The notes under the pieces were generated by a model, which searched no databases, had not been told where the DNA came from, and worked only from the letters and a program-made list of their open reading frames with translations. DNA of 64,000 nt, from the IMG/VR virus record IMGVR_UViG_3300046376_000226, positions 10,556 through 74,555 of that record; one strand, given 5' to 3'. The first letter of the stretch is position 1. Each line of letters starts with the position of its first letter. Source of the DNA: a virus. Made by a program: the position numbers and the translations under genes. Positions 1,158 through 11,266 of the stretch are shown here, piece after piece.

Positions 1158-2047
1158 GCTAGCGCCGCCAGCCCGATTTGCACCACCACTTTCTCGTCCA
1201 GGTAATCGATAGCCAGGTTGCCGCCCCGGGCCTCGGCCCGCTCAATGACCTTACCGAATGGGGTGGCTGGTCCGATGGCTTGGGACTCAAAGCCCAGGGC
1301 TTTAGCAATGCTCCAGCGTTGCTCGATCAGGTAATAGGCCAGGCTCGCCACTAAATCGTCGTCTTGCTCGGCCCACTTAAGCAGGTCGCGTTCGCTGATC
1401 GGTACTCGCAGGTAACGAATGGCGTCAGCCGCCTCGTCTCCGGCCAGCCGCCGGATCCGTTCCAATGCCGCTTCGCCTTCCTCGGTAAAAGTGACCTCAT
1501 CGGGTACCCGTTTCTTGCCACTGCCGGTGGCAGGCGCGGCCGCTTTTTCGCCGTTAGCGTCCCCTGAGTCCAGGTCCAGGTCGGTCTTTACCCCGGTGCG
1601 TTCCTTGGCGGCCGCTTTAGCCTGGGCGTCCTCGATCTGGTCGACAATGGCTCGGACGCCCCGGCTGGTTAGAGGCTGGCTCCGGCGCGCCTGGGCGTCC
1701 AGGATCTGGCCCCAGACCTCAGTCTGGCGTTCGGCATCCAGGCGGCTCAGCTCGGCGGCCATACTCTCGTTATCGGGCAGCGCCAGGCCCGCTTTTTTAA
1801 TGCGGTCGACGGTCAGCGAGATCCCGATGATTCGCTCGGTTGAGCGCGGCTCGAAGGGGAGTGTGGCCGTGATATAGTCAGCCCAGGCTTCGTAGCCCCG
1901 CTCTTCATAGAGCTTCTCGCTTTTGATCTTATAAAGCTCGCGCCCAATAGCGACCGTTGCGTCCTGGGTCCGTTTCAGGTTGGTGGCGATCTTCAGCTCG
2001 CATTGCTCGAGTGCCAGCAAACGTTCTTTGGAGGTAAGTTCTTTCAT
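1154..2047 (-). CDS. Hypothetical helical, probably DNA-binding phage protein
   Basis: 297 aa; IGRELYKIKSEKLYEERGYEAWADY resembles N-termini of phage HTH/ParB-associated proteins. Confidence 0.65.
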   Translation of the reverse strand: MKELTSKERLLALEQCELKIATNLKRTQDATVAIGRELYKIKSEKLYEERGYEAWADYITATLPFEPRSTERIIGISLTVDRIKKAGLALPDNESMAAELSRLDAERQTEVWGQILDAQARRSQPLTSRGVRAIVDQIEDAQAKAAAKERTGVKTDLDLDSGDANGEKAAAPATGSGKKRVPDEVTFTEEGEAALERIRRLAGDEAADAIRYLRVPISERDLLKWAEQDDDLVASLAYYLIEQRWSIAKALGFESQAIGPATPFGKVIERAEARGGNLAIDYLDEKVVVQIGLAALA

Positions 2048-2059
2048 GCCCTTGGGTTC

Positions 2060-3235
2060 CTACCATGGTTTGGCTTGCTTGTGGAATGCGATCGCGGCTT
2101 CGAACATCGCATAATCGGCGCGCTGGAGATCGTTAGCCTCATCCCAGCCTTCCCGCACCTTGGGTAACCACTGGTTCTCGATTACCTGGAGTTCGGCCTG
2201 GTTCAGCTCGGAGATTTTGCGCTTGTGATACTTCACGTGCGTTACCCCCAGGATCACATGGTCGCGCCAGGGCGGCTCCGGCGGCGCGGCAGGCGGGCTC
2301 ATATCCAGCTCGTTGTCATCGGGGCTTGGCCCCATCCGTTTCTCGGCTTTCTGCGGCTCAACTGTTTGCGGCTTAGGCGGCTCTACGGGTTTAGGGGGCA
2401 GCTCATGGACAGTAGCCGGTTGAGCTGCTTCTTCTGGGGTAGGCAACGGTTTCTCGGGTTGTAACGTGGTCATGTTAGGCGGCAGAGGCGCTTTAGCCAG
2501 CTCCGCTTCGCGTTCCCGGTTACGCCGGATCTTTTCCTCGTCCAGCCCTAAGGTCTCGGTGTCCGTCTCAGCGTCGGTGATGTTACTGTCCAGTTCTTCC
2601 CGGATATAGATGTTGGACAACTGGTCAGGGAAGGCACCGCGCAGCGCTGCTGCTTTGGCGCATTTGCCCAGCATATAGTCGTCCATCTTGGACCAGAACT
2701 CTGAGACCTCCCATTGCTTCTTTTCCTGGTTCCAGCTCTGCCCGACGTAAGCGTGCCAGCGGGCGATCCCGATCTCGGGGTGCGCCCGGTGCCGGTGATG
2801 GACGATTGCTCGAGCGGCGGCAGGCGCGTTCTCGAATAGCCATTCGGTCAGCCATTTAACTTCGCCGGTCCCTTCCTCCGGAGGACCCGCCCAGGCGATC
2901 TCGCACCCGTTGTAGTCGCCGGTCCGGGTGGCTACGGCCGTCAGGCCCATGATGCCGGTGACGATCACCAGCGTAGGCACCTTTTTCGTATTACCGTTCT
3001 CGTCGCGCACCTTTTGATAACGTCGGGTGGCATAGATCTGTTTAGTAAACGGATCCAATTTGGTACGCTGACAGACGCGGATAAAACTCTCAGCCTCGTC
3101 CTCGGGGAACTTGGCGAGCATCGTTCTTTTCAGTAACTCGACCTCTTCTTTGGACAGGAAATCGGGCATCGGGGAGAACTGTGGGGTGTAGGTTTGGGCT
3201 ATAGGATAGGATTGCTCCTGTGGGGCGAGATTCAT
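2060..3235 (-). CDS. bet: Bet/RecT-family single-strand annealing recombinase
   Basis: FIRVCQRTKLDPFTKQIY, TGIMGLTAVATRTGDYNG, MLGKCAKAAALRGAFPDQLSNIYIREE are typical Red-beta/RecT motifs; Pro-rich linker and C-terminal domain. Confidence 0.85.
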   Translation of the reverse strand: MNLAPQEQSYPIAQTYTPQFSPMPDFLSKEEVELLKRTMLAKFPEDEAESFIRVCQRTKLDPFTKQIYATRRYQKVRDENGNTKKVPTLVIVTGIMGLTAVATRTGDYNGCEIAWAGPPEEGTGEVKWLTEWLFENAPAAARAIVHHRHRAHPEIGIARWHAYVGQSWNQEKKQWEVSEFWSKMDDYMLGKCAKAAALRGAFPDQLSNIYIREELDSNITDAETDTETLGLDEEKIRRNREREAELAKAPLPPNMTTLQPEKPLPTPEEAAQPATVHELPPKPVEPPKPQTVEPQKAEKRMGPSPDDNELDMSPPAAPPEPPWRDHVILGVTHVKYHKRKISELNQAELQVIENQWLPKVREGWDEANDLQRADYAMFEAAIAFHKQAKPW

Positions 3236-4065
3236 AAGAGACCTTTGGCGTTAGCTTTCACTGATACATTGATAGAGCGTTTGACCTGGATCCCGGGCAG
3301 GGAGGGCGTGCAGTTGGGATCGATCGCTAATTGAGCCCGGACACTATCCTGGCAAGCCTGGATATTCAGTTCCCAGCGCAGGAGCCCCAGGCACCCGGCT
3401 CGGACAGTTTCGCCCAAGTTAAGCAGCTTAAACTCGAAAGGATGATCTACCCGGCCGGACGGCACCAGGCCCCGCCTAGGTTGATCCGCGCCGAGGTTAG
3501 CGACTTCCATGGCCATCTCTTTGGCTAGTTGCTCCTGGGCTGCGACTAACATCTGGGCCTGGGCCTCGGCCTGCGCTTTAATTCGAGCCGCTTCATCTAA
3601 AGCCGCCCGGGCTTTCTCCTCGGCTGCTTCCTGGGCAGCCAGAGCCGCGCGAATTTTAGCGTCATGGGCTTCTCGTTCCCGGGCCAGAGCCTCGGCGTGT
3701 TTGCGATCTTGCTCTTTCTGGCGCGCCTCCAGCTCGGCTACGTAAGCATTCAGGAGCCCCAGGATCCGTTTGTGCTCGGCGCCGACAGAGTCACCGATCA
3801 GTCGCGCCTGTTCGTTGATTTGCTCATTAATGCTTTTAAACGGTTCCTGGGCTCCCTTACGGCCTTTGTCGATTTCGTTCAGGAACGCTTTGAGCTGGCC
3901 CGCCAGCTGTTGGGCCGTGGCGAAACTGGCGCTGTCAAAGACCGACACAAACCCAGAGGTGCGATTTAGGAGTGCGTCAGCCCGCTTCTGATCCTTGGGG
4001 TTTACCCGGACCTGGACACTCTGGACGACAAGGGGTTGATCCCCATAGTACGGAGTCAATTCCAT
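3232..4065 (-). CDS. Coiled-coil phage protein next to the recombinase
   Basis: Ala/Glu/Lys-rich coiled coil ending in PGIQV; coupled to bet. Confidence 0.7.
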   Translation of the reverse strand: MELTPYYGDQPLVVQSVQVRVNPKDQKRADALLNRTSGFVSVFDSASFATAQQLAGQLKAFLNEIDKGRKGAQEPFKSINEQINEQARLIGDSVGAEHKRILGLLNAYVAELEARQKEQDRKHAEALAREREAHDAKIRAALAAQEAAEEKARAALDEAARIKAQAEAQAQMLVAAQEQLAKEMAMEVANLGADQPRRGLVPSGRVDHPFEFKLLNLGETVRAGCLGLLRWELNIQACQDSVRAQLAIDPNCTPSLPGIQVKRSINVSVKANAKGLL

Positions 4066-4074
4066 GCGTGTCCC

Positions 4075-4425
4075 TTAGGTAGTTGGCACCGAGTCGGCTT
4101 GTAAACGTTGGAACGTTTCCCAATAGTCTTCAACGGCTTGTTCCAGGACCTCGGCCTGGGCAATAATGTCCTCACGCATTGCCGGGAAATATTCATCCAG
4201 ATGCGCGCGCGCATGTTTCGCCGCGCGCAAAAGTATCGTGCGCAACCCGGCGGCCTGAGTGAAACGGAAGTAGCGACACTCCATCACCGGAGTGCATGAA
4301 CTTAAGCCTCCTACCCCTTTAATGTGATCTGCCAGGGGGGCGATAGCTCTGCGCAGCGCCGCGATTTCCTCGGGCGCATGCCGGTAAAAAATGTGCGCGT
4401 CGATGATCCTATTTTGCACGTCCAT
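4075..4425 (-). CDS. Hypothetical protein
   Basis: 116-aa ORF with AAGGAG RBS directly upstream. Confidence 0.65.
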   Translation of the reverse strand: MDVQNRIIDAHIFYRHAPEEIAALRRAIAPLADHIKGVGGLSSCTPVMECRYFRFTQAAGLRTILLRAAKHARAHLDEYFPAMREDIIAQAEVLEQAVEDYWETFQRLQADSVPTT

Positions 4426-4500
4426 CTCCTTAGGATCAATCGTAGCATGATGGGCTTAGCATGCGCAACGAAAGCATGCTTTAAGGTTAGCTTTTTTCTA

Positions 4501-4610
4501 AGCGCGCCAAGGCTAGTTGTGCGAAAGACTTACCCAGAGCCAGAGTCAACGAGAAACCCGTATCCTGAGAGCGAGCCATCCTGGTTGAAGAGACCCATGA
4601 ACGCTGAGCG
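4501..4610 (+). repeat. Orphan TIGR-like mini-array (about 2 intact units plus a degenerate one)
   Basis: GAGCCA-gagtcaacg-AGAAACCCG-tatcctgag-AGCGAGCCA-tcctggttg-aAGAGACCCA-tgaacgctg-AGCG; same repeats and 9-nt spacers as the large array, opposite strand. Confidence 0.7.
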
Positions 4611-4642
4611 TTAGCTTTTGGAGTAAAGCATGCTTTTTTGGA

Positions 4643-4906
4643 CTAAGCCAGGTACCCGTTAGCTCGAGCCCAGGCCGGTGAATCATGTATCCGGCGGTGA
4701 CAATCGGTGCAGACCGCGATCCAGTCCCCGGTCCGGTTGAGCTGGGCTCCGATCCGGCCCGCGCGATGATGGATCTGGGTGGAGCGTCGCGCGTCGCATA
4801 GCTCGCACCGGGGATGGCTAGCCAGATGCCCTTGCCGCTCTTTTGCGTACAGGCGAAGCGCCCTGGCGCGCTTGGGACTAACGTGCCGGAGGGGGACGCG
4901 TTTCAC
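4643..4906 (-). CDS. Small HNH endonuclease
   Basis: CELC...STQIHHRAGR...WIAVCTDCHRRIH zinc-binding HNH signature. Confidence 0.85.
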   Translation of the reverse strand: MKRVPLRHVSPKRARALRLYAKERQGHLASHPRCELCDARRSTQIHHRAGRIGAQLNRTGDWIAVCTDCHRRIHDSPAWARANGYLA

Positions 4907-5117
4907 TTCCGGAAGAGGCCGATATCCGGGTCAAACAGGATCCCCCAGATCCCGATCGCGATGGCCAAAAAGCCTATCCCTGCCAGGCACAACTCGGCGG
5001 CATTATTCGGTAATGGAATCATAAGCCTGAGAGTACTTGGCCGCTAGATGCATGGCTAATTCTAAAGTGAGCCGGGCCCCAGTTTCAGCAAGCCCACTAT
5101 ACTGGGTCATTCCTTCG

Positions 5118-5570
5118 TCATCCAGGTCCGGGTTGAGTTGTTGGTGGCGCAGCTGGCTTAGGTGATGGCGGGTCACCTCCGGCGCAACCGCTATCATGAA
5201 GTCCCTGACTAGTTCCAGTTGCTTGGTCGTCTCCATAGACAGGGCGAGGCATGGGCTCGTCGAGAGGTTCCCATAACGTAGCGTAGGGTTCAGGGCTAAC
5301 ATCAATCGGCGGGAAAAATTGGCAAACCCAGGCTTGGTCATCGAAGAAAAGGTCCCGTGCCTGCCGCAGGATATGGTGCCCCGGAGGCGTCGCCGTCAAA
5401 TTAGCTGAAGTGTGCCGGACTAGAAGCCTGCGCCAGCCCTCGGAGTCCGAGAGAGTTATCCACCAGATGTCGCCAGAAATGGGCACTAGGAAGTGTCCAT
5501 TCCAGCCATCCACCTCTGAGCCCCCGCGCCGCCAGCGGTTAGCTCTGATTAGCTTTTCGAGCAGGGTCAC
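5118..5570 (-). CDS. Hypothetical phage protein
   Basis: Coupled to 5567-5995; protein-like N-terminal part; tail overlaps the 5003-5341 ORF. Confidence 0.5.
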   Translation of the reverse strand: MTLLEKLIRANRWRRGGSEVDGWNGHFLVPISGDIWWITLSDSEGWRRLLVRHTSANLTATPPGHHILRQARDLFFDDQAWVCQFFPPIDVSPEPYATLWEPLDEPMPRPVYGDDQATGTSQGLHDSGCAGGDPPSPKPAAPPTTQPGPG

Positions 5571-5995
5571 TTTCTGGGCTTTACCTTTTGAATAACCTCT
5601 TTGACTGCCTTGCGTTCCGCAGGCATTAGCGCGGCCAGGTGCCGCGCCCGCCGCGCCGCCCTGGCCTCGGCCCTGGCTGCTGCCCGAGTCGCCGGATCTC
5701 CGGCTACCCCGAGCGGGTCCACATAGAGGCTGGGATCAGGTCGTTCCTCCAGAGTTTCCAGGGCTAGGAATTCTGCCCGAGTCGGCACCGGATACCGGTC
5801 CAAATGTTTTTGCAGGAACTCCCCTATATAGATACTGTCCGCACCTTCGCGCAGTCGCTTGATAGTGTCTTTTTTGAGACTGCAAGTGACATAGCCCCAG
5901 GCATCTTTATCCGGTTTGCCCTTCCTGCCTGCCCCCAGGCGTGAGCCGCCTCTCCCGTTTTTCCGTTTCTTGATCATTTTTAATTTTTTGGCCAT
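5567..5995 (-). CDS. Basic putative DNA-binding protein
   Basis: RGGSRLGAGRK (AT-hook-like GGxRxGAGRK) followed by an RHH-like segment. Confidence 0.65.
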   Translation of the reverse strand: MAKKLKMIKKRKNGRGGSRLGAGRKGKPDKDAWGYVTCSLKKDTIKRLREGADSIYIGEFLQKHLDRYPVPTRAEFLALETLEERPDPSLYVDPLGVAGDPATRAAARAEARAARRARHLAALMPAERKAVKEVIQKVKPRK

Positions 5996-6155
5996 AAAAG
6001 ATCCGATAATAAAATGTTCGTAATGCCGCTGGGTCAGTAATCGTGCCTTCCTTGCGGTTGGCTAGACGATAGCTGATTCCGCTGGAGCGTGCCTCTCTAA
6101 CCGTCGAAAGCGCGCGCCAGTCTAGCATTTGGATGAAAGCATGCTTTTTTCCCAC

Positions 6156-6362
6156 TTATCTTAGATTATTAAAAAAGGGTATGGTTGTGATCTGGTAGTT
6201 TCCCACTGGATGGGTTTCAATCCAGGTCCGGGCCGCTAGTTCGCTCGAAAAGCCGAGCATGGCGAAATAGACGCCAGGGAAAGTGGGACTTTCCCTTTCC
6301 ACCAGGTAGACGGTCTGGCAGACCGTCGCGATATCGTAGTTGAGCAGTGAATCAGTTTTCAT
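6156..6362 (-). CDS. Hypothetical protein
   Basis: 68-aa ORF downstream of the promoter at 6554-6582. Confidence 0.5.
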   Translation of the reverse strand: MKTDSLLNYDIATVCQTVYLVERESPTFPGVYFAMLGFSSELAARTWIETHPVGNYQITTIPFFNNLR

Positions 6363-6553
6363 TTTAGGAAAGTCCCGAGCAGGGTTCCCACCTGCGTCTC
6401 CCGGCGTCAGCCGGACTATTTTACGCTTTATCCCAGTCTCCGGTCGAAGGCTCCCAAGATTCTCTATTCTGCGTAGCTACTGCATTTCGATACGTCTCAG
6501 TGTTGCAACGTGCCTCGAGTCGGTGACCGGCTCAAAACTATCGGAACGCCACT

Positions 6554-6582
6554 AGCCTAAGGCCGGACATTTGAATTGTCAA
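6554..6582 (-). promoter_or_regulatory. Repeated sigma70-like early promoter, copy 1
   Basis: TTGACA-N17-TAGGCT; context conserved with five other copies. Confidence 0.7.
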
Positions 6583-6589
6583 GGGCTAA

Positions 6590-7405
6590 TCAATTAGGAG
6601 GGGGAATGATGCCGTCATGTCCCAGAACCTGCCCTACGTAAGGTCCTCTCACCGGCAGGCCGCGCGCCTTCCTACCCTCTCCCCAGTAGTGGACCAGGAA
6701 AATTTTGACGGCGCGGCGGCGCGCCTTGTTGTCGATGTGAGCGTCAGAGAGCTTACCCTCCAGTAGCCTGGTTTTCGTAACCGTGTCGTCCCGCCAGTTC
6801 TTGGTTGCGAGCAGCTCGGCCGCCGCTTTTTTGTAGTGGCCGGACTCATTGCGCCGGATCTCCTCGGCCTTGAACTCCCGATACAAGCCGCCGTAAAAAC
6901 ATTCCTCCTGCCCCGAAAATTTGACAAACGAATCGCCAATTTTCCAGCAGAGGGTCTTCAGCCGGGAGTTGTATTGCAGTTTCTCGCCTTTGATCCGGCG
7001 ATCGAAGCCGGGAGCCAAGCCCGCAAACTTCCAGAGCGCCGATGGACTGTTCGCTTTGCTAATGTCGATATGCGCGGCTAAGCCAGCTGCTAGGACCGGG
7101 CCGATACCGTACTGAGAGTAAGCCCAGCGGGATTCTACCGGCGCATCGCTCTCTACCCATTTCTGCAACTTAGCCTGGATAAGCGCCTCGCCAAAATGCA
7201 AGTACTCAAAGAACCAGGCATCGAGATCCCGTGGCTCTTCCGTTCGTTTTTTGGCGGCATGCCGTTTCCGGTGCTCCTGACAGTCGTAATATAGTTCGAC
7301 GATTCGGGCCACACTTGAGGCTTCGATTTCGTAGGCTTTTACAATCTCATTGATTAGGTCATTGCGCGCTAGTTTGACTAGTTCCTTGTGTTGTTCTTTT
7401 TTCAT
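6590..7405 (-). CDS. tasA: TIGR-associated Nop-domain RNA-binding protein without a nuclease domain (TasA type; IS110 C-terminal/Nop-like fold)
   Basis: LYYDCQEHR coiled coil; YGIGPVLAAGL (HhH-like), SALWKFAGLAPG, YNSRLKTLCWKIGDSFVK, HIDNKARRRAVKIFLVHYW, GLPVRGPY...LGH; no N-terminal RuvC/DEDD or HNH; abuts a dual-repeat array. Confidence 0.85.
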   Translation of the reverse strand: MKKEQHKELVKLARNDLINEIVKAYEIEASSVARIVELYYDCQEHRKRHAAKKRTEEPRDLDAWFFEYLHFGEALIQAKLQKWVESDAPVESRWAYSQYGIGPVLAAGLAAHIDISKANSPSALWKFAGLAPGFDRRIKGEKLQYNSRLKTLCWKIGDSFVKFSGQEECFYGGLYREFKAEEIRRNESGHYKKAAAELLATKNWRDDTVTKTRLLEGKLSDAHIDNKARRRAVKIFLVHYWGEGRKARGLPVRGPYVGQVLGHDGIIPPPN

Positions 7406-9615
7406 TCGCTCTTTCGCTATGGGTGTCTCTGTTTCGCTGGCTCGCTCATTCCGTATTGGGTGTCTCTTTCTTTTTGGCTCGCTCCTATGCTATGGGCGTC
7501 TCGGTTTCGCTGGCTCGCTAATTCATGATGGGTGCCTCTATCTTTTTGGCTCGCTAATTTGTTATGGGCGTCTCGTATCTACTGACTCGCTCATTCGCTG
7601 TGGGTGCCTCGTTCTTATTGGCTCGCTTCCGCTCCTGGGGCGTCTCTGGATTCGCGGCTCGCTCGTTTACGGTGGATGTTTTTTGGTATGTGGCTCGCTC
7701 CATTGAAGTGGCTGACGCTCTTCCAACATGACTCGCTCACGGCTTTCGGATGTCTCGCGAACAATGACTCGCTCCATTGAACTGGTTGTCTCTTTCATCA
7801 TGGCTCGCTCGTACGCTCTGGATATCTCTCTTTTAGCGGCTCGCTCATTTTCGATGGGTGGCTCAGCTGCTCTGACTCGCTCGCGTATCGTGGATGGCTC
7901 GTGGGCAGCGGCTCGCTCGCACTCTCTGGTTGTCTTGTGGTTCAGGGCTCGCTCGCTGCTGATGGGTGTCTCATATGGTGTGGCTCGCTCGCGGCCCTTG
8001 GTCGTCTCATTAATTTTGGCTCGCTCTTTTGTGGTGAGTGTTTTTCCTTTTGCATGGCTCGCTCGTTCATCACGGTTATCTCTCGTAGAGTGGCTCGCTC
8101 CTGTCTGTTGGGTGCCTCTTAAACCTTGGCTACTGCATTCCTCCGCTTGCGATGTATGGGGTTCTCTATCCGTTCGACTCGCTCCTCGTCTTTTGGATAT
8201 CTCGTCAGGGCTGGCTCGCTCTCACCTTTTGGGGCTCTTCATCGACAATGGCTCGTTCCCCGGCTTTGGGTGTCTTTTACGGATTGACTCGCTCATCTTT
8301 AAGGTTGTGACTCAATGGTCATGGCTCGCTTCTTATTTCTTGGGTGTCTCTTGCCAGTTGGCTCGCTCCTAGAATATGTGGCTCTGTTCGGTTCCCTTGG
8401 CTCGCTCTCATGCGATGGGGTTCTCTCACCATACGGCTCGCTATTCCGTCTCTGGGCGTCTCCGGTATTGTGGCTCGCTATTGTCCAATGGGCGTCTTAT
8501 GGATTCTGGCTCGCTTCTCATTGCTGGTTGTCTCGTATTGCTCGGCTCGCTCCAACTTAATGGGTGCCTCATCTGCTTGGCTCGCTCTCTTCGCGCGGTT
8601 ATCTACAATCGCATGGCTCGCTCATCCGCGATGGGTTGCTCTTTCTGAATGGCTCGCTCCCATGCCTTGGGTATCTCACTTTGCTTGGCTCGCTCTTGCG
8701 TTATGGGTTGCTCGTCATGGATGGCTCGCTCATTCATTTTGGGACTCTCTTTTGCCATGGCTCGCTCTTTACATCGGTGGGATAGCTCTTCTGATTTGAC
8801 TCGCTCGTTCTGGTTGGATGGCTCATCAGGGTTGGCTCGCTCTTCCGTCTCAGGGTTTCTGTTTTCTCATGACTCGCTCTATTTGAATGGGTGCCTCTAC
8901 AACCGTGACTCGCTCGCCTATTATGGGGTGACGTCCTCTTGATTGACTCGCTCTCTCACTTTGGGTTTCTTGCTTGGCGCGGCTCGCTTAAGCTCTATGG
9001 GTTTCTCCTTGGTGTTGGCTCGCTCATTGTGCTTGGATGGCTACCGAATCAAGGCTCGCTTTCTTTTCTTGGATATCTCTCGATTAATGACTCGCTCCTC
9101 TCAATTGGGTGACTCTTCGAGAATGGCTCGCTAGTTTATCCTGGGGTTGCTCTTCTTGTAGTGGCTCGCTTTGTTTTCGCGTGGATGATTCACCTTCTGT
9201 GGCTCGCTCTTCATTTATGGGGTTCTCACGCAGGCTGGCTCGCTCGCACATGTTGGGTATGGGTAATCTCGCGTAGTCCGGCTCGCTCCAATGATTTGGG
9301 GTTCTCTATCGCTCTGGCTCGCTCCCGCTCTGTGGATGGCTCGTTACCTATTGGCTCGCTTGTGATTCATGGGCGTCTTGCACCATTTGGCTAGCTCCTT
9401 TCGAATGGGCTCCTCAAGTTTCATGGCTCGCTTGTATATTGTGGGATTACTCCGAGGGCTTGGCTCGCTTTACAGACGTGGGTTGCTCCGGGTTCCTGGC
9501 TCGCTCGTGACATATGGGCGTCTCGTACCTATTGGCTCGCTCGTTTATCCTGGGTTGCTCCTAATTGATGGCTCCGCTCGTTCGGCGACGGTTGTCTTTT
9601 GGGGCTCGGCTCGCT
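7404..9615 (-). ncRNA. TIGR (tandem interspaced guide RNA) array, about 60 units of 36 nt
   Basis: Minus-strand unit = AGCGAGCCA - 9-nt spacer - AGACACCCA (variable loop repeat) - 9-nt spacer; about 60 units counted by eye; both repeats start AG and end CCA; last repeat merges with the tasA ATG. Confidence 0.9.
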
Positions 9616-9785
9616 CTCCGAAAACTTCGTAGAGCTTGCCGCCAAAAGACAGGTCATTTTGATTGGTTTGGACCCAATCATATTCTCTGATAATTACCAT
9701 AAAAAATGCCCTTTTCGACCCCCGCTTTAAACGCACCAGGTTGACCGCAGGCGCGTCGCAAGGCCGAGCAGGTGCATTGGACCTG

Positions 9786-9855
9786 TGCGCAACGTTGCGC
9801 ATCCTGGGGCATCCTCGAGCGTTTGTGGGCCATAGCCAAATGATGACATGTGTCA
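9786..9855. repeat. About 70-bp element with TGCGCAACGTTGCGCA palindrome, duplicated at 57584-57653
   Basis: Direct comparison of the two copies. Confidence 0.75.
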
Positions 9856-9962
9856 GGGTTTGCGCCTGGTTAAGTACTCCGAAAGCGCGATCAGCGTGAA
9901 GTACAAGATGATCGCCAAGGCACCACTCAAGAACCCTAGAAGGAAAGTGGTTACATCCATAC

Positions 9963-11266
9963 CTATTGGACTAGCAGGTTCCGGATAATGACTCCAGCGC
10001 AGTCGCGCGCTGAGACGTGGGTGCCAGCCGGTGCGTTATCCTGGAGCGTCTGCCGCCAGTCCTCTGCCATGACGGCCGACAGCAGTGCCTGACCCTCTGA
10101 GCCCTTGGTCCAGGCGCTTGCTATCTGGATGATATAATGCCGGACCCGTTCCCAGTACCGGGCATCGCGGTCGTAAACAGTCGCTTTCATTTTGCCGCCT
10201 CGCACCATTTGTCAATGACCCGTTGGGCGGCTGCTATGGCCTGCCCGAGGCTTTCATAGTAGCCAGTGGTCTGGCCATCGGCGTGAGCCATCCAGGTGAG
10301 CACTCCCTGACTATAATAGGAGTGGATGCCGATCTCGTGCTGCCGGTATTCGATTACGTGATCGTATCGGACCAGCCGGTCGTTAAGTCTAAATGCGTAC
10401 CTCATAGTGGAATCCATTTACCCTGGACTAAGCGAGCGGCGGCTTTGATGTCGCCGTAGCCTTTGCGCGAATCATACGTCCGGACTTCGCCGCCGTTAGC
10501 CAGGCGGACGCCAATGGTGCTCCCTTTGACGAAGATCACCTCGGCGGGAGTATTGTTGCCTCCCTTACCGGTGACTAGAACGTAGTCACCGGCTCGTAGC
10601 GTGCTCACTTTCATCGGGAGAGAGCGTCGTAAGTACTTGGGCTTTCCCACCGGTCATGAAGTGCGATCGGTTGTTCGCTCGGGAACCGGCTATCACTGGA
10701 ATAGATGAAGTTCCCGCCAAACATTGGACCCACTAAACCCTTTGGTTGATAAACTGGTTCAGCGTGCAGATAATTTCCTCGGCGCACCAAGCGCACAGGA
10801 GGTCGTTCTGGGTTGGGTGCGAAGATCTCAGCCTCTTTACCCAACTCGACTAAGGTCACTTCCTCGCACTGGCTGCTGACGCCTCCGTTGCTGCAATCCC
10901 AGCCGCATTTGTAGATCAGGCATACGAGCCCTAGCATAGATTCAGAGTTGCTCATAGCTCACCTCCGTTGCGGCTGCGCCAGTACTCCATCACGTACTCA
11001 CGCAGTGCCTGCTTAGTGGGTAAGCCGCCCAGTCCTTTATTGGCAACGGTATCCCTGCTGACAGACCATTGGTCCTCGGACTTGAGGTCCGCATAGAACA
11101 AGCCTCCCTGCTCGTACCAGTAGCCAAGCGGATGGTAATCACCTCCGTTTGTCAGTTTGGTGCTATCACCGGTCAAGCGAGGTCGACCCGGTCCGTCGCT
11201 ACCGCAGGCCACTACCAGTCCACTTTTCCTCAGTACCACGCGCCGTTTGCCATACATCATGCTCAT
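9963..11266 (-). other. Run of overlapping small early-region hypothetical ORFs (9963-10190, 10187-10417, 10402-10614, 10611-10955, 10952-11266)
   Basis: Head-to-tail start/stop overlaps, some with GGAGG RBS; no recognisable function. Confidence 0.65.

Follow-up and report, generated by a model that had tools for sequence, protein, structure and literature searches.

The intergenic gap between an HNH endonuclease gene and a gene encoding a 116-aa protein in a soil phage contained two whole units of the phage's own dual-repeat TIGR system (4538-4610, plus strand). That this segment is genuinely TIGR-derived is established with hardly any doubt. The units were inverted relative to both the main TIGR array and tasA, which lie on the minus strand. 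We consider the two units to be a by-product of array turnover that would have been inserted at a site of microhomology and then carried passively, and we assign this reading a probability of about 0.5.

The analysed stretch of 64,000 nucleotides (the window) corresponded to bases 10556-74555 of a 74,555-bp IMG/VR phage record, rated complete by CheckV. The public runs containing the phage sequence were soil metagenomes, and none of those listed was an RNA run. The nearest TasA relatives among bacterial assemblies (L026-L036) came from Acidobacteriota genomes (Acidobacteria gp1, Solibacteraceae, Bryobacteraceae and Acidobacteriaceae KBS 96), and therefore Acidobacteriota is the likely host phylum. 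No match was obtained in a blastn search of the phage collection with window positions 3000-8000 as the query, or in an Rfam search of positions 4000-10000 at a permissive threshold. Every called gene between 7405 and 1154 was located on the minus strand, and the order along this strand was the main array, tasA, small genes of unknown function, the HNH gene, the gap, the 116-aa gene, an exonuclease-like gene and RecT. The HNH endonuclease gene (4643-4906, minus strand, 87 aa) was matched by PF01844 at 18.8 bits, which is below the 21.4 cut-off, and by phrog_740 at 1.3e-9. The 116-aa gene of unknown function (4075-4425, minus strand) followed downstream of the gap, which measured 217 bp in the window. 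Between the two-unit fragment and tasA, whose stop codon was 1,980 bp away, lay the HNH gene and five overlapping ORF calls with no known function. The distance of about 2 kb from tasA and the convergence on a small HNH gene, both proposed in the initial annotation of this locus, were thereby confirmed.

The tasA gene (6590-7405, minus strand) encoded a 271-aa nuclease-free Nop/IS110-type protein that matched phrog_4285 at 1.8e-34 and PF02371 (IS110-type) at 18.8 bits, below the cut-off of that family. Its relatives all adjoined dual-repeat arrays. The ATG of tasA directly followed the final AGCGA of the main dual-repeat array (7410-9615, minus strand), which comprised ~60 units with the edge repeat AGCGAGCCA and the loop consensus AGACACCCA. 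One edge repeat of this array was cut by a 12-nt insertion (8132-8143) between AGCG and AGCCA. The main array varied among soil runs, with skips of 36, 73, 110 and 1270 nt; its unit content turns over quickly within the phage population. These gains and losses of units between soil populations demonstrate that the array DNA is mobile in this lineage. Internal 72-nt duplications were seen at the tasA-proximal end of the main array. In the closest TasA relative from the viral collection (L009, 1-14675, 63% identity), the array was located downstream of tasA and the module pointed away from the RecT and HNH genes, in contrast to the window, where the array was upstream and on the same strand. The module orientation relative to RecT was thus opposite, indicating that the location of the TIGR-tasA module varies among related phages.

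The first unit (4538-4573, plus strand, 36 nt) consisted of AGCCA, spacer A (gagtcaacg), the loop repeat AGAAACCCG (4552-4560), spacer B (tatcctgag) and AGCG. The second unit (4574-4610, plus strand) comprised AGCCA, spacer A (tcctggttg, followed by an extra a), the loop repeat AGAGACCCA (4589-4597), spacer B (tgaacgctg) and a 3'-truncated edge, AGCG. The edge repeat AGCGAGCCA joining them at 4570-4578 was identical to that of the main array at 9/9 positions. The initial annotation had reported this edge repeat, both loop repeats, the inversion and four 9-nt spacers; all were found where it had placed them, with one additional base at 4588 that extended the second unit to 37 nt. All repeats of the fragment began with AG after G or A, as in the main array. 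The box C sequence CCA terminated AGCCA, AGCGAGCCA and AGAGACCCA, whereas the loop of the first unit read CCG, a change also present in several main-array loops, and at most this one repeat position was off consensus. The fragment thus displayed the alternating edge and loop repeats, ~9-nt spacers and ~36-nt unit of a dual-repeat array, with box D opening and box C closing its edge and loop repeats, and with a tas gene nearby on the other strand.

The unit boundary was set at AGCG/AGCCA because the main array ends in AGCGA, the 12-nt insertion splits an edge repeat at the same point, and mature tigRNAs extend from mid-edge to mid-edge (Faure et al. 2025, PMC12045711). In whole arrays, the first edge is truncated on its 5' side and the last one on its 3' side, after which a rho-independent terminator follows (Faure et al. 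2025, PMC12045711). The fragment was in tigRNA register, with AGCCA at its 5' end (4538) and AGCG at its 3' end (4607), and held exactly two units. It was followed on the plus strand by a hairpin (4606-4635, -9.1 kcal/mol) and UUUU (to 4639). This terminator-like hairpin was weak and did not exceed shuffles (z = -0.25), was not called by the consensus scan, and recruited the GAGCG at the array end together with a portion of a pre-existing palindrome element. The spacers of the fragment were poorer in A than the main-array spacers (0.19 versus 0.37), and none of them was a copy of a spacer now present in the main array. Shared spacers were discounted: TGAACGCTG was also a spacer in the array of another locus (L079), and spacer B of the first unit matched a spacer of a further one (L059) at 8/9 positions, matches that are expected by chance, according to our estimate, given ~1,600 spacers with a biased composition.

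The similarity to the TIGR system was evaluated with a gapped model, built from 51 main-array units, in which the edge and loop repeats had separate weights and the spacer length was variable; 200 simulated genomes served as the null. The unit at 4569 (plus strand) scored 30.3 bits, within the range of the main array, while the null maxima had a mean of 15.3 and a highest value of 22.3 (200 simulated genomes). The loop-edge-loop chain at 4551-4597 reached 41.9 bits, compared with null maxima with a mean of 12.8, a standard deviation of 3.5 and a highest value of 24.2 (100 simulated genomes). The first unit scored 12.9 bits in the rigid model, 11.5 bits for its loop and 29.9 bits for the loop-edge combination; neither loop of the fragment fell below 11.5 bits. 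When rigid 36-column weights were applied, the two best matches in the gap, at 4570 and 4534 (plus strand), ranked second and fourth outside the main array and were spaced exactly 36 nt apart. The genome scan with a weight model of the unit, which the initial annotation had suggested as a check, therefore gave scores above background. Because the chain and the unit exceeded all null maxima, they represent TIGR sequence and not a chance likeness. An accidental occurrence of repeat-like 9-mers in the gap would draw on the abundance of edge 9-mers with one mismatch (~21 expected per window) and on the null-level score of a solo match elsewhere in the window. However, three repeats in the correct order and phase, at a score that no simulated genome approached, refute this reading, and its probability is practically nil. 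The solo TIGR-like unit in question (2044-2079, minus strand), with the edge AGCAAGCCA and the loop AGGAACCCA, was located, on the gene strand, where RecT stops and the next gene starts; its 19.5 bits do not quite reach the 95th percentile of the null maxima (19.8), so it may be fortuitous.

The two units were carried on an inserted segment of ~95 nt (4517-4611, plus strand), consisting of a 21-nt leader (4517-4537) and the units themselves. The segment was absent from an uninterrupted paralogous element of 43 nt (6108-6150, plus strand) located 1.6 kb away, which corresponds to an empty site and aligned to the gap region in two pieces. The left part of the interrupted element (4500-4516, plus strand) matched 6108-6125 at 15/18 positions, a score reached by 4/500 shuffles, and the right part (4612-4639) matched 6123-6150 at 25/28 positions, a score reached by 0/500 shuffles. 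The two pieces of the paralog overlapped on TAG, which flanked the insert at 4514-4516 and 4612-4614, so the ends of the insert may shift by up to 3 nt. The leader ended in the loop-like sequence ACTTACCCA (4528-4536). Alternative insertion boundaries were offered by an exact 10-nt direct repeat, GTTAGCTTTT (4486-4495 and 4610-4619, plus strand), which were rated lower than TAG because GTTAGCTTTT itself belongs to the repeated element. The initial annotation had described a degenerate edge at 4501. The edge-like 9-mer AGCGCGCCA was indeed present at 4501-4509, but it aligned with the paralog at 6108-6125 and had no in-phase loop repeat. The 9-mer was accordingly rejected as the edge of a third, decayed unit at 4501-4536, and assigning AGCGCGCCA to the interrupted element is preferable to seeing in it a decayed TIGR edge. 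An inversion between the fragment and the main array was also rejected as the origin, because the orientation of the HNH gene relative to the 116-aa gene was constant in all relatives.

The perfect 12-bp palindrome AAAGCATGCTTT occurred on both sides of the units. The left copy (4471-4482) was operator-like and immediately preceded the promoter-like motif of the 116-aa gene, while the right copy (4625-4636) was 7 nt from the HNH stop codon. A total of six exact copies were present in the 74.5-kb genome, as compared with a naive expectation of ~0.004 for a given 12-mer; they began at window positions -1710, -1612, 4471, 4625, 6136 and 60396, the first two corresponding to genome positions 8846 and 8944. 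Most copies were intergenic or at gene junctions, with a plus-strand T run in 5/6. Two distant relatives (L021 and L024) had the palindrome right after the HNH stop codon, in two copies in the case of L021, and no TIGR units there. Since these relatives carry it at the same junction without TIGR units, AAAGCATGCTTT represents older, conserved sites and is not part of the mini-array. The palindromes that the initial annotation had seen bracketing the units were located as described and do not serve as brackets of the mini-array. They are probably binding sites of a conserved phage regulator, operator- or stoperator-like in arrangement. A long-range pairing that would join the palindrome regions on either side of the array was rejected, as the overall folds were no better than shuffles (z = 0.68 and 0.34). 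A ~98-bp tandem duplication at genome positions 8829-9000 (window -1727 to -1556) carried the palindrome and GGGATTTTTCAAATC in each copy; an edge-like AGCGAGTCG was located between its two palindromes, with no in-phase loop repeat.

On the other side of the left palindrome, a promoter-like motif of the operon comprising the 116-aa gene, the exonuclease and RecT was located at 4439-4468 (minus strand), with TTGCGC (4468-4463) separated by 18 nt from TACGAT (4444-4439). GCGTTGCGCA or a one-base variant was present upstream of the 116-aa gene in 9/9 junctions inspected (the window, L009, L014-L016, L020-L022 and L024), and in most of the nine, by visual reading, a TAnnnT hexamer followed 17-18 nt after the TTGCGC core. 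The region has the appearance of a conserved promoter serving the recombination operon.

The adjacency of the HNH and 116-aa genes was kept in 12 related loci, the proteins of which were 40-58% identical to those of the window over the aligned parts. None of the 12 junctions contained TIGR units, and their gaps measured 42-140 bp versus 217 bp in the window. The protein most similar to the 116-aa product (P0002, 73% identity) is encoded on a contig outside this junction comparison. Inverted satellites were additionally searched for with a detector that learned the repeats of each locus, in 51 related TasA loci with recognisable arrays. In these loci the array units adjoined tasA and were on its strand. 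A convincing inverted satellite was found in 0/51; three loci had a single opposite-strand match just above the threshold, and none had two in-phase units. The conservation in related phages for which the initial annotation had called was therefore not observed, either at the junctions or as an in-phase inverted pair.

The two-unit fragment was found only in near-identical to 93%-identical soil variants and did not represent a conserved accessory element. A soil contig from another study was identical over 4561-4767. A soil variant covering 4439-4639 showed 93% identity with 14 differences, and its only indel was the deletion of one base at 4579, which gives the second unit the canonical 36 nt. 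Because the insert is present in this variant, the insertion is older than the split of these populations. The insert had diverged (7%) about as much as the flanking genes had in this run (2-9%), and hence there was no sign of special constraint or decay.

No plus-strand sigma-70-type promoter was detected in positions 3900-5100 by the consensus scan, whose E. coli-type consensus may not suit Acidobacteriota or phage promoters. Inspection by eye revealed only hexamers matching at 3-4/6 positions with wrong spacing. Only ~40 nt separated a left terminator-like hairpin from the first unit. On the minus strand, the gap lay inside the run of genes and contained no terminator-like site. TasA proteins are reported to be RNA-guided transcriptional repressors, and dual-repeat Tas proteins to process their own pre-tigRNA (Xu et al. 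2026, bioRxiv 10.64898/2026.09.09.750476); therefore, any plus-strand transcript of 4538-4610 could plausibly yield two guides. The search for targets of the paired 18-mers, another suggestion of the initial annotation, gave nothing above chance. In the 74.5-kb phage genome, the best matches in both tandem-spacer geometries had 3-5/18 mismatches, the same as in the control geometries. In the 87 related loci, the two tandem geometries likewise gave nothing beyond chance when compared with two control geometries. Seven 2-mismatch matches obtained in one geometry were scattered, and some came from 16-17-nt queries. A regulatory role resembling that of CRISPR mini-arrays, which the initial annotation had raised, found no support, as no self-target was better than the control geometries.

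The relic of array movement that had been offered as an alternative in the initial annotation fitted these results best, given an insertion of ~95 nt flanked by TAG, missing from the junctions of the 12 relatives and antisense to all neighbours. According to this reading, a segment would have been copied from the fast-changing main array to a nearby site by an illegitimate event, e.g., a switch of strand or template mediated by microhomology at TAG. The segment now lies in one copy of the operator-like repeated element, with the HNH gene on one side and the promoter-like motif of the recombination operon on the other, and would since have been carried passively, as a footprint of array turnover and not as a working second array. 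The case for it, which we regard as about evenly balanced, combines the TIGR scores, the TAG insertion, the absence from 12 junctions, the uncopied and less A-rich spacers, and the mobility of the main array. As no plus-strand promoter was seen, the units are antisense to all neighbours and no target was detectable, they probably supply few or no guides to TasA. The complete-array register, the 3' hairpin with its U run, the near-consensus repeats, the retention in two further soil studies and the possibility that host or phage promoters are not E. coli-like speak against a passive fate.

A working satellite array is a tentative and less favoured possibility. The plus strand would be transcribed from an unrecognised promoter, possibly controlled by the flanking palindromes, with the transcript ending at 4606-4639; TasA would cut it at the edge repeats and load two tigRNAs in trans, and the two guides would direct TasA to two 18-bp sites, located in the host or in competing elements, blocking transcription. 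The canonical anatomy in tigRNA register, a terminator-like hairpin and U run present on the plus strand only, and the persistence in 93%-identical soil variants are in line with such a function, as are the reported self-processing of pre-tigRNA by dual-repeat Tas proteins, the reported RNA-guided repression by TasA, and the arrays on record upstream, downstream or on both sides of tas (bioRxiv 10.64898/2026.09.09.750476). However, a plus-strand sigma-70-type promoter was not found and only ~40 nt separate the first unit from the left terminator-like hairpin; the units originated as an insertion at microhomology and were absent from all relatives examined; box C of the first unit reads CCG; the hairpin does not outperform shuffles and consists largely of a pre-existing palindrome element; and neither the phage genome nor the 87 related loci held a target. 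A role of the minus-strand copy or of the DNA itself appears improbable. Operon mRNA running through the gap would base-pair with the repeats of pre-tigRNA or would sequester TasA as a decoy, tuning guide maturation or the expression of the downstream recombination genes. The gap lies among minus-strand genes and has no terminator-like site on that strand, which would allow this, and the minus-strand copy carries the complements of one edge and two loop repeats. Nevertheless, the pairing would be limited to stretches of 9-10 nt with unrelated spacers between them, the complement of a unit has neither box C nor box D in the right polarity, nothing comparable occurred in the 51 related loci, and dual-repeat tigRNA processing is ascribed to the Tas protein itself, with no accessory RNA needed (bioRxiv 10.64898/2026.09.09.750476). 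It is also conceivable, albeit doubtful, that the segment is a footprint of TIGR array spread, in which whole units cut at or next to AGCG/AGCCA would be copied in reverse into a new intergenic site, seeding a young satellite array that TasA could already process and use in trans.

The origin and expansion of TIGR arrays and their uptake of spacers are not known, and no adaptation genes are known (PMC12045711; bioRxiv 10.64898/2026.09.09.750476). The locus described here records a datable event, in which two units in guide register arrived on an insertion whose empty site survives as a paralog nearby, adjoining a main array whose 36-nt units are seen to come and go from one soil population to another. 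Had the spread of the array indeed left this footprint, the birth of a dispersed array would have been caught, a layout not described in PMC12045711 or bioRxiv 10.64898/2026.09.09.750476. Should the units be expressed, a separate antisense transcription unit could serve TasA as a source of guides, and these would escape any survey centred on tas or limited to one strand. Should they be silent, array DNA would still have been shown to move within a genome via ordinary illegitimate recombination. The main value of the locus is that of a dated, anatomically clean example of TIGR units moving inside a genome.

Among known systems, the stoperators of cluster A mycobacteriophages are short exact DNA motifs repeated at intergenic spots of the phage genome. 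They resemble only the flanking palindromes, which share the short exact motif and the intergenic repetition, accompanied by a T run on the plus strand in 5/6 copies; AAAGCATGCTTT differs as a perfect 12-bp palindrome of only six copies and is a putative site. CRISPR mini-arrays, orphan arrays and solitary repeat units occur in phages, and degenerate mini-CRISPRs of the CreA type guide repression. The two-unit fragment is similar to these in its very small number of guides, its distance from the main array and its location on a mobile element, and it could act with an effector encoded elsewhere, but it belongs to a different guide system and has no partially matching target nearby. The closest likeness is to dual-repeat arrays of the type of FpTIGR from Flavonifractor plautii (PMC12045711), with which it shares the alternating 9-nt edge and loop repeats, the 9-nt spacers A and B and the 36-nt unit. 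The CCA-ending repeats, the truncated edges at both ends and a tas gene within 2 kb are also common to both (PMC12045711), and a hairpin with a U run follows in each case, although that of the fragment is weak. In contrast to those arrays (PMC12045711), the fragment has two units only, lies on the strand opposite to tasA and all neighbours, lacks a recognisable promoter and is part of a lineage-specific ~95-nt insertion. Orphan TIGR arrays are not named in PMC12045711 or bioRxiv 10.64898/2026.09.09.750476, nor does the latter name mini-arrays, opposite-strand or antisense arrays, or array orientation. Arrays have been reported upstream, downstream or on both sides of tas, or within it (Xu et al. 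2026, bioRxiv 10.64898/2026.09.09.750476), and a TasA locus from the Peromyscus gut carries three stem-loop arrays (PMC12045711). These multi-array loci and the locus studied here have in common a single Tas protein with more than one array and a flexible array position; their arrays lie beside or inside tas, whereas the second array of the window is inverted and predicted from sequence.
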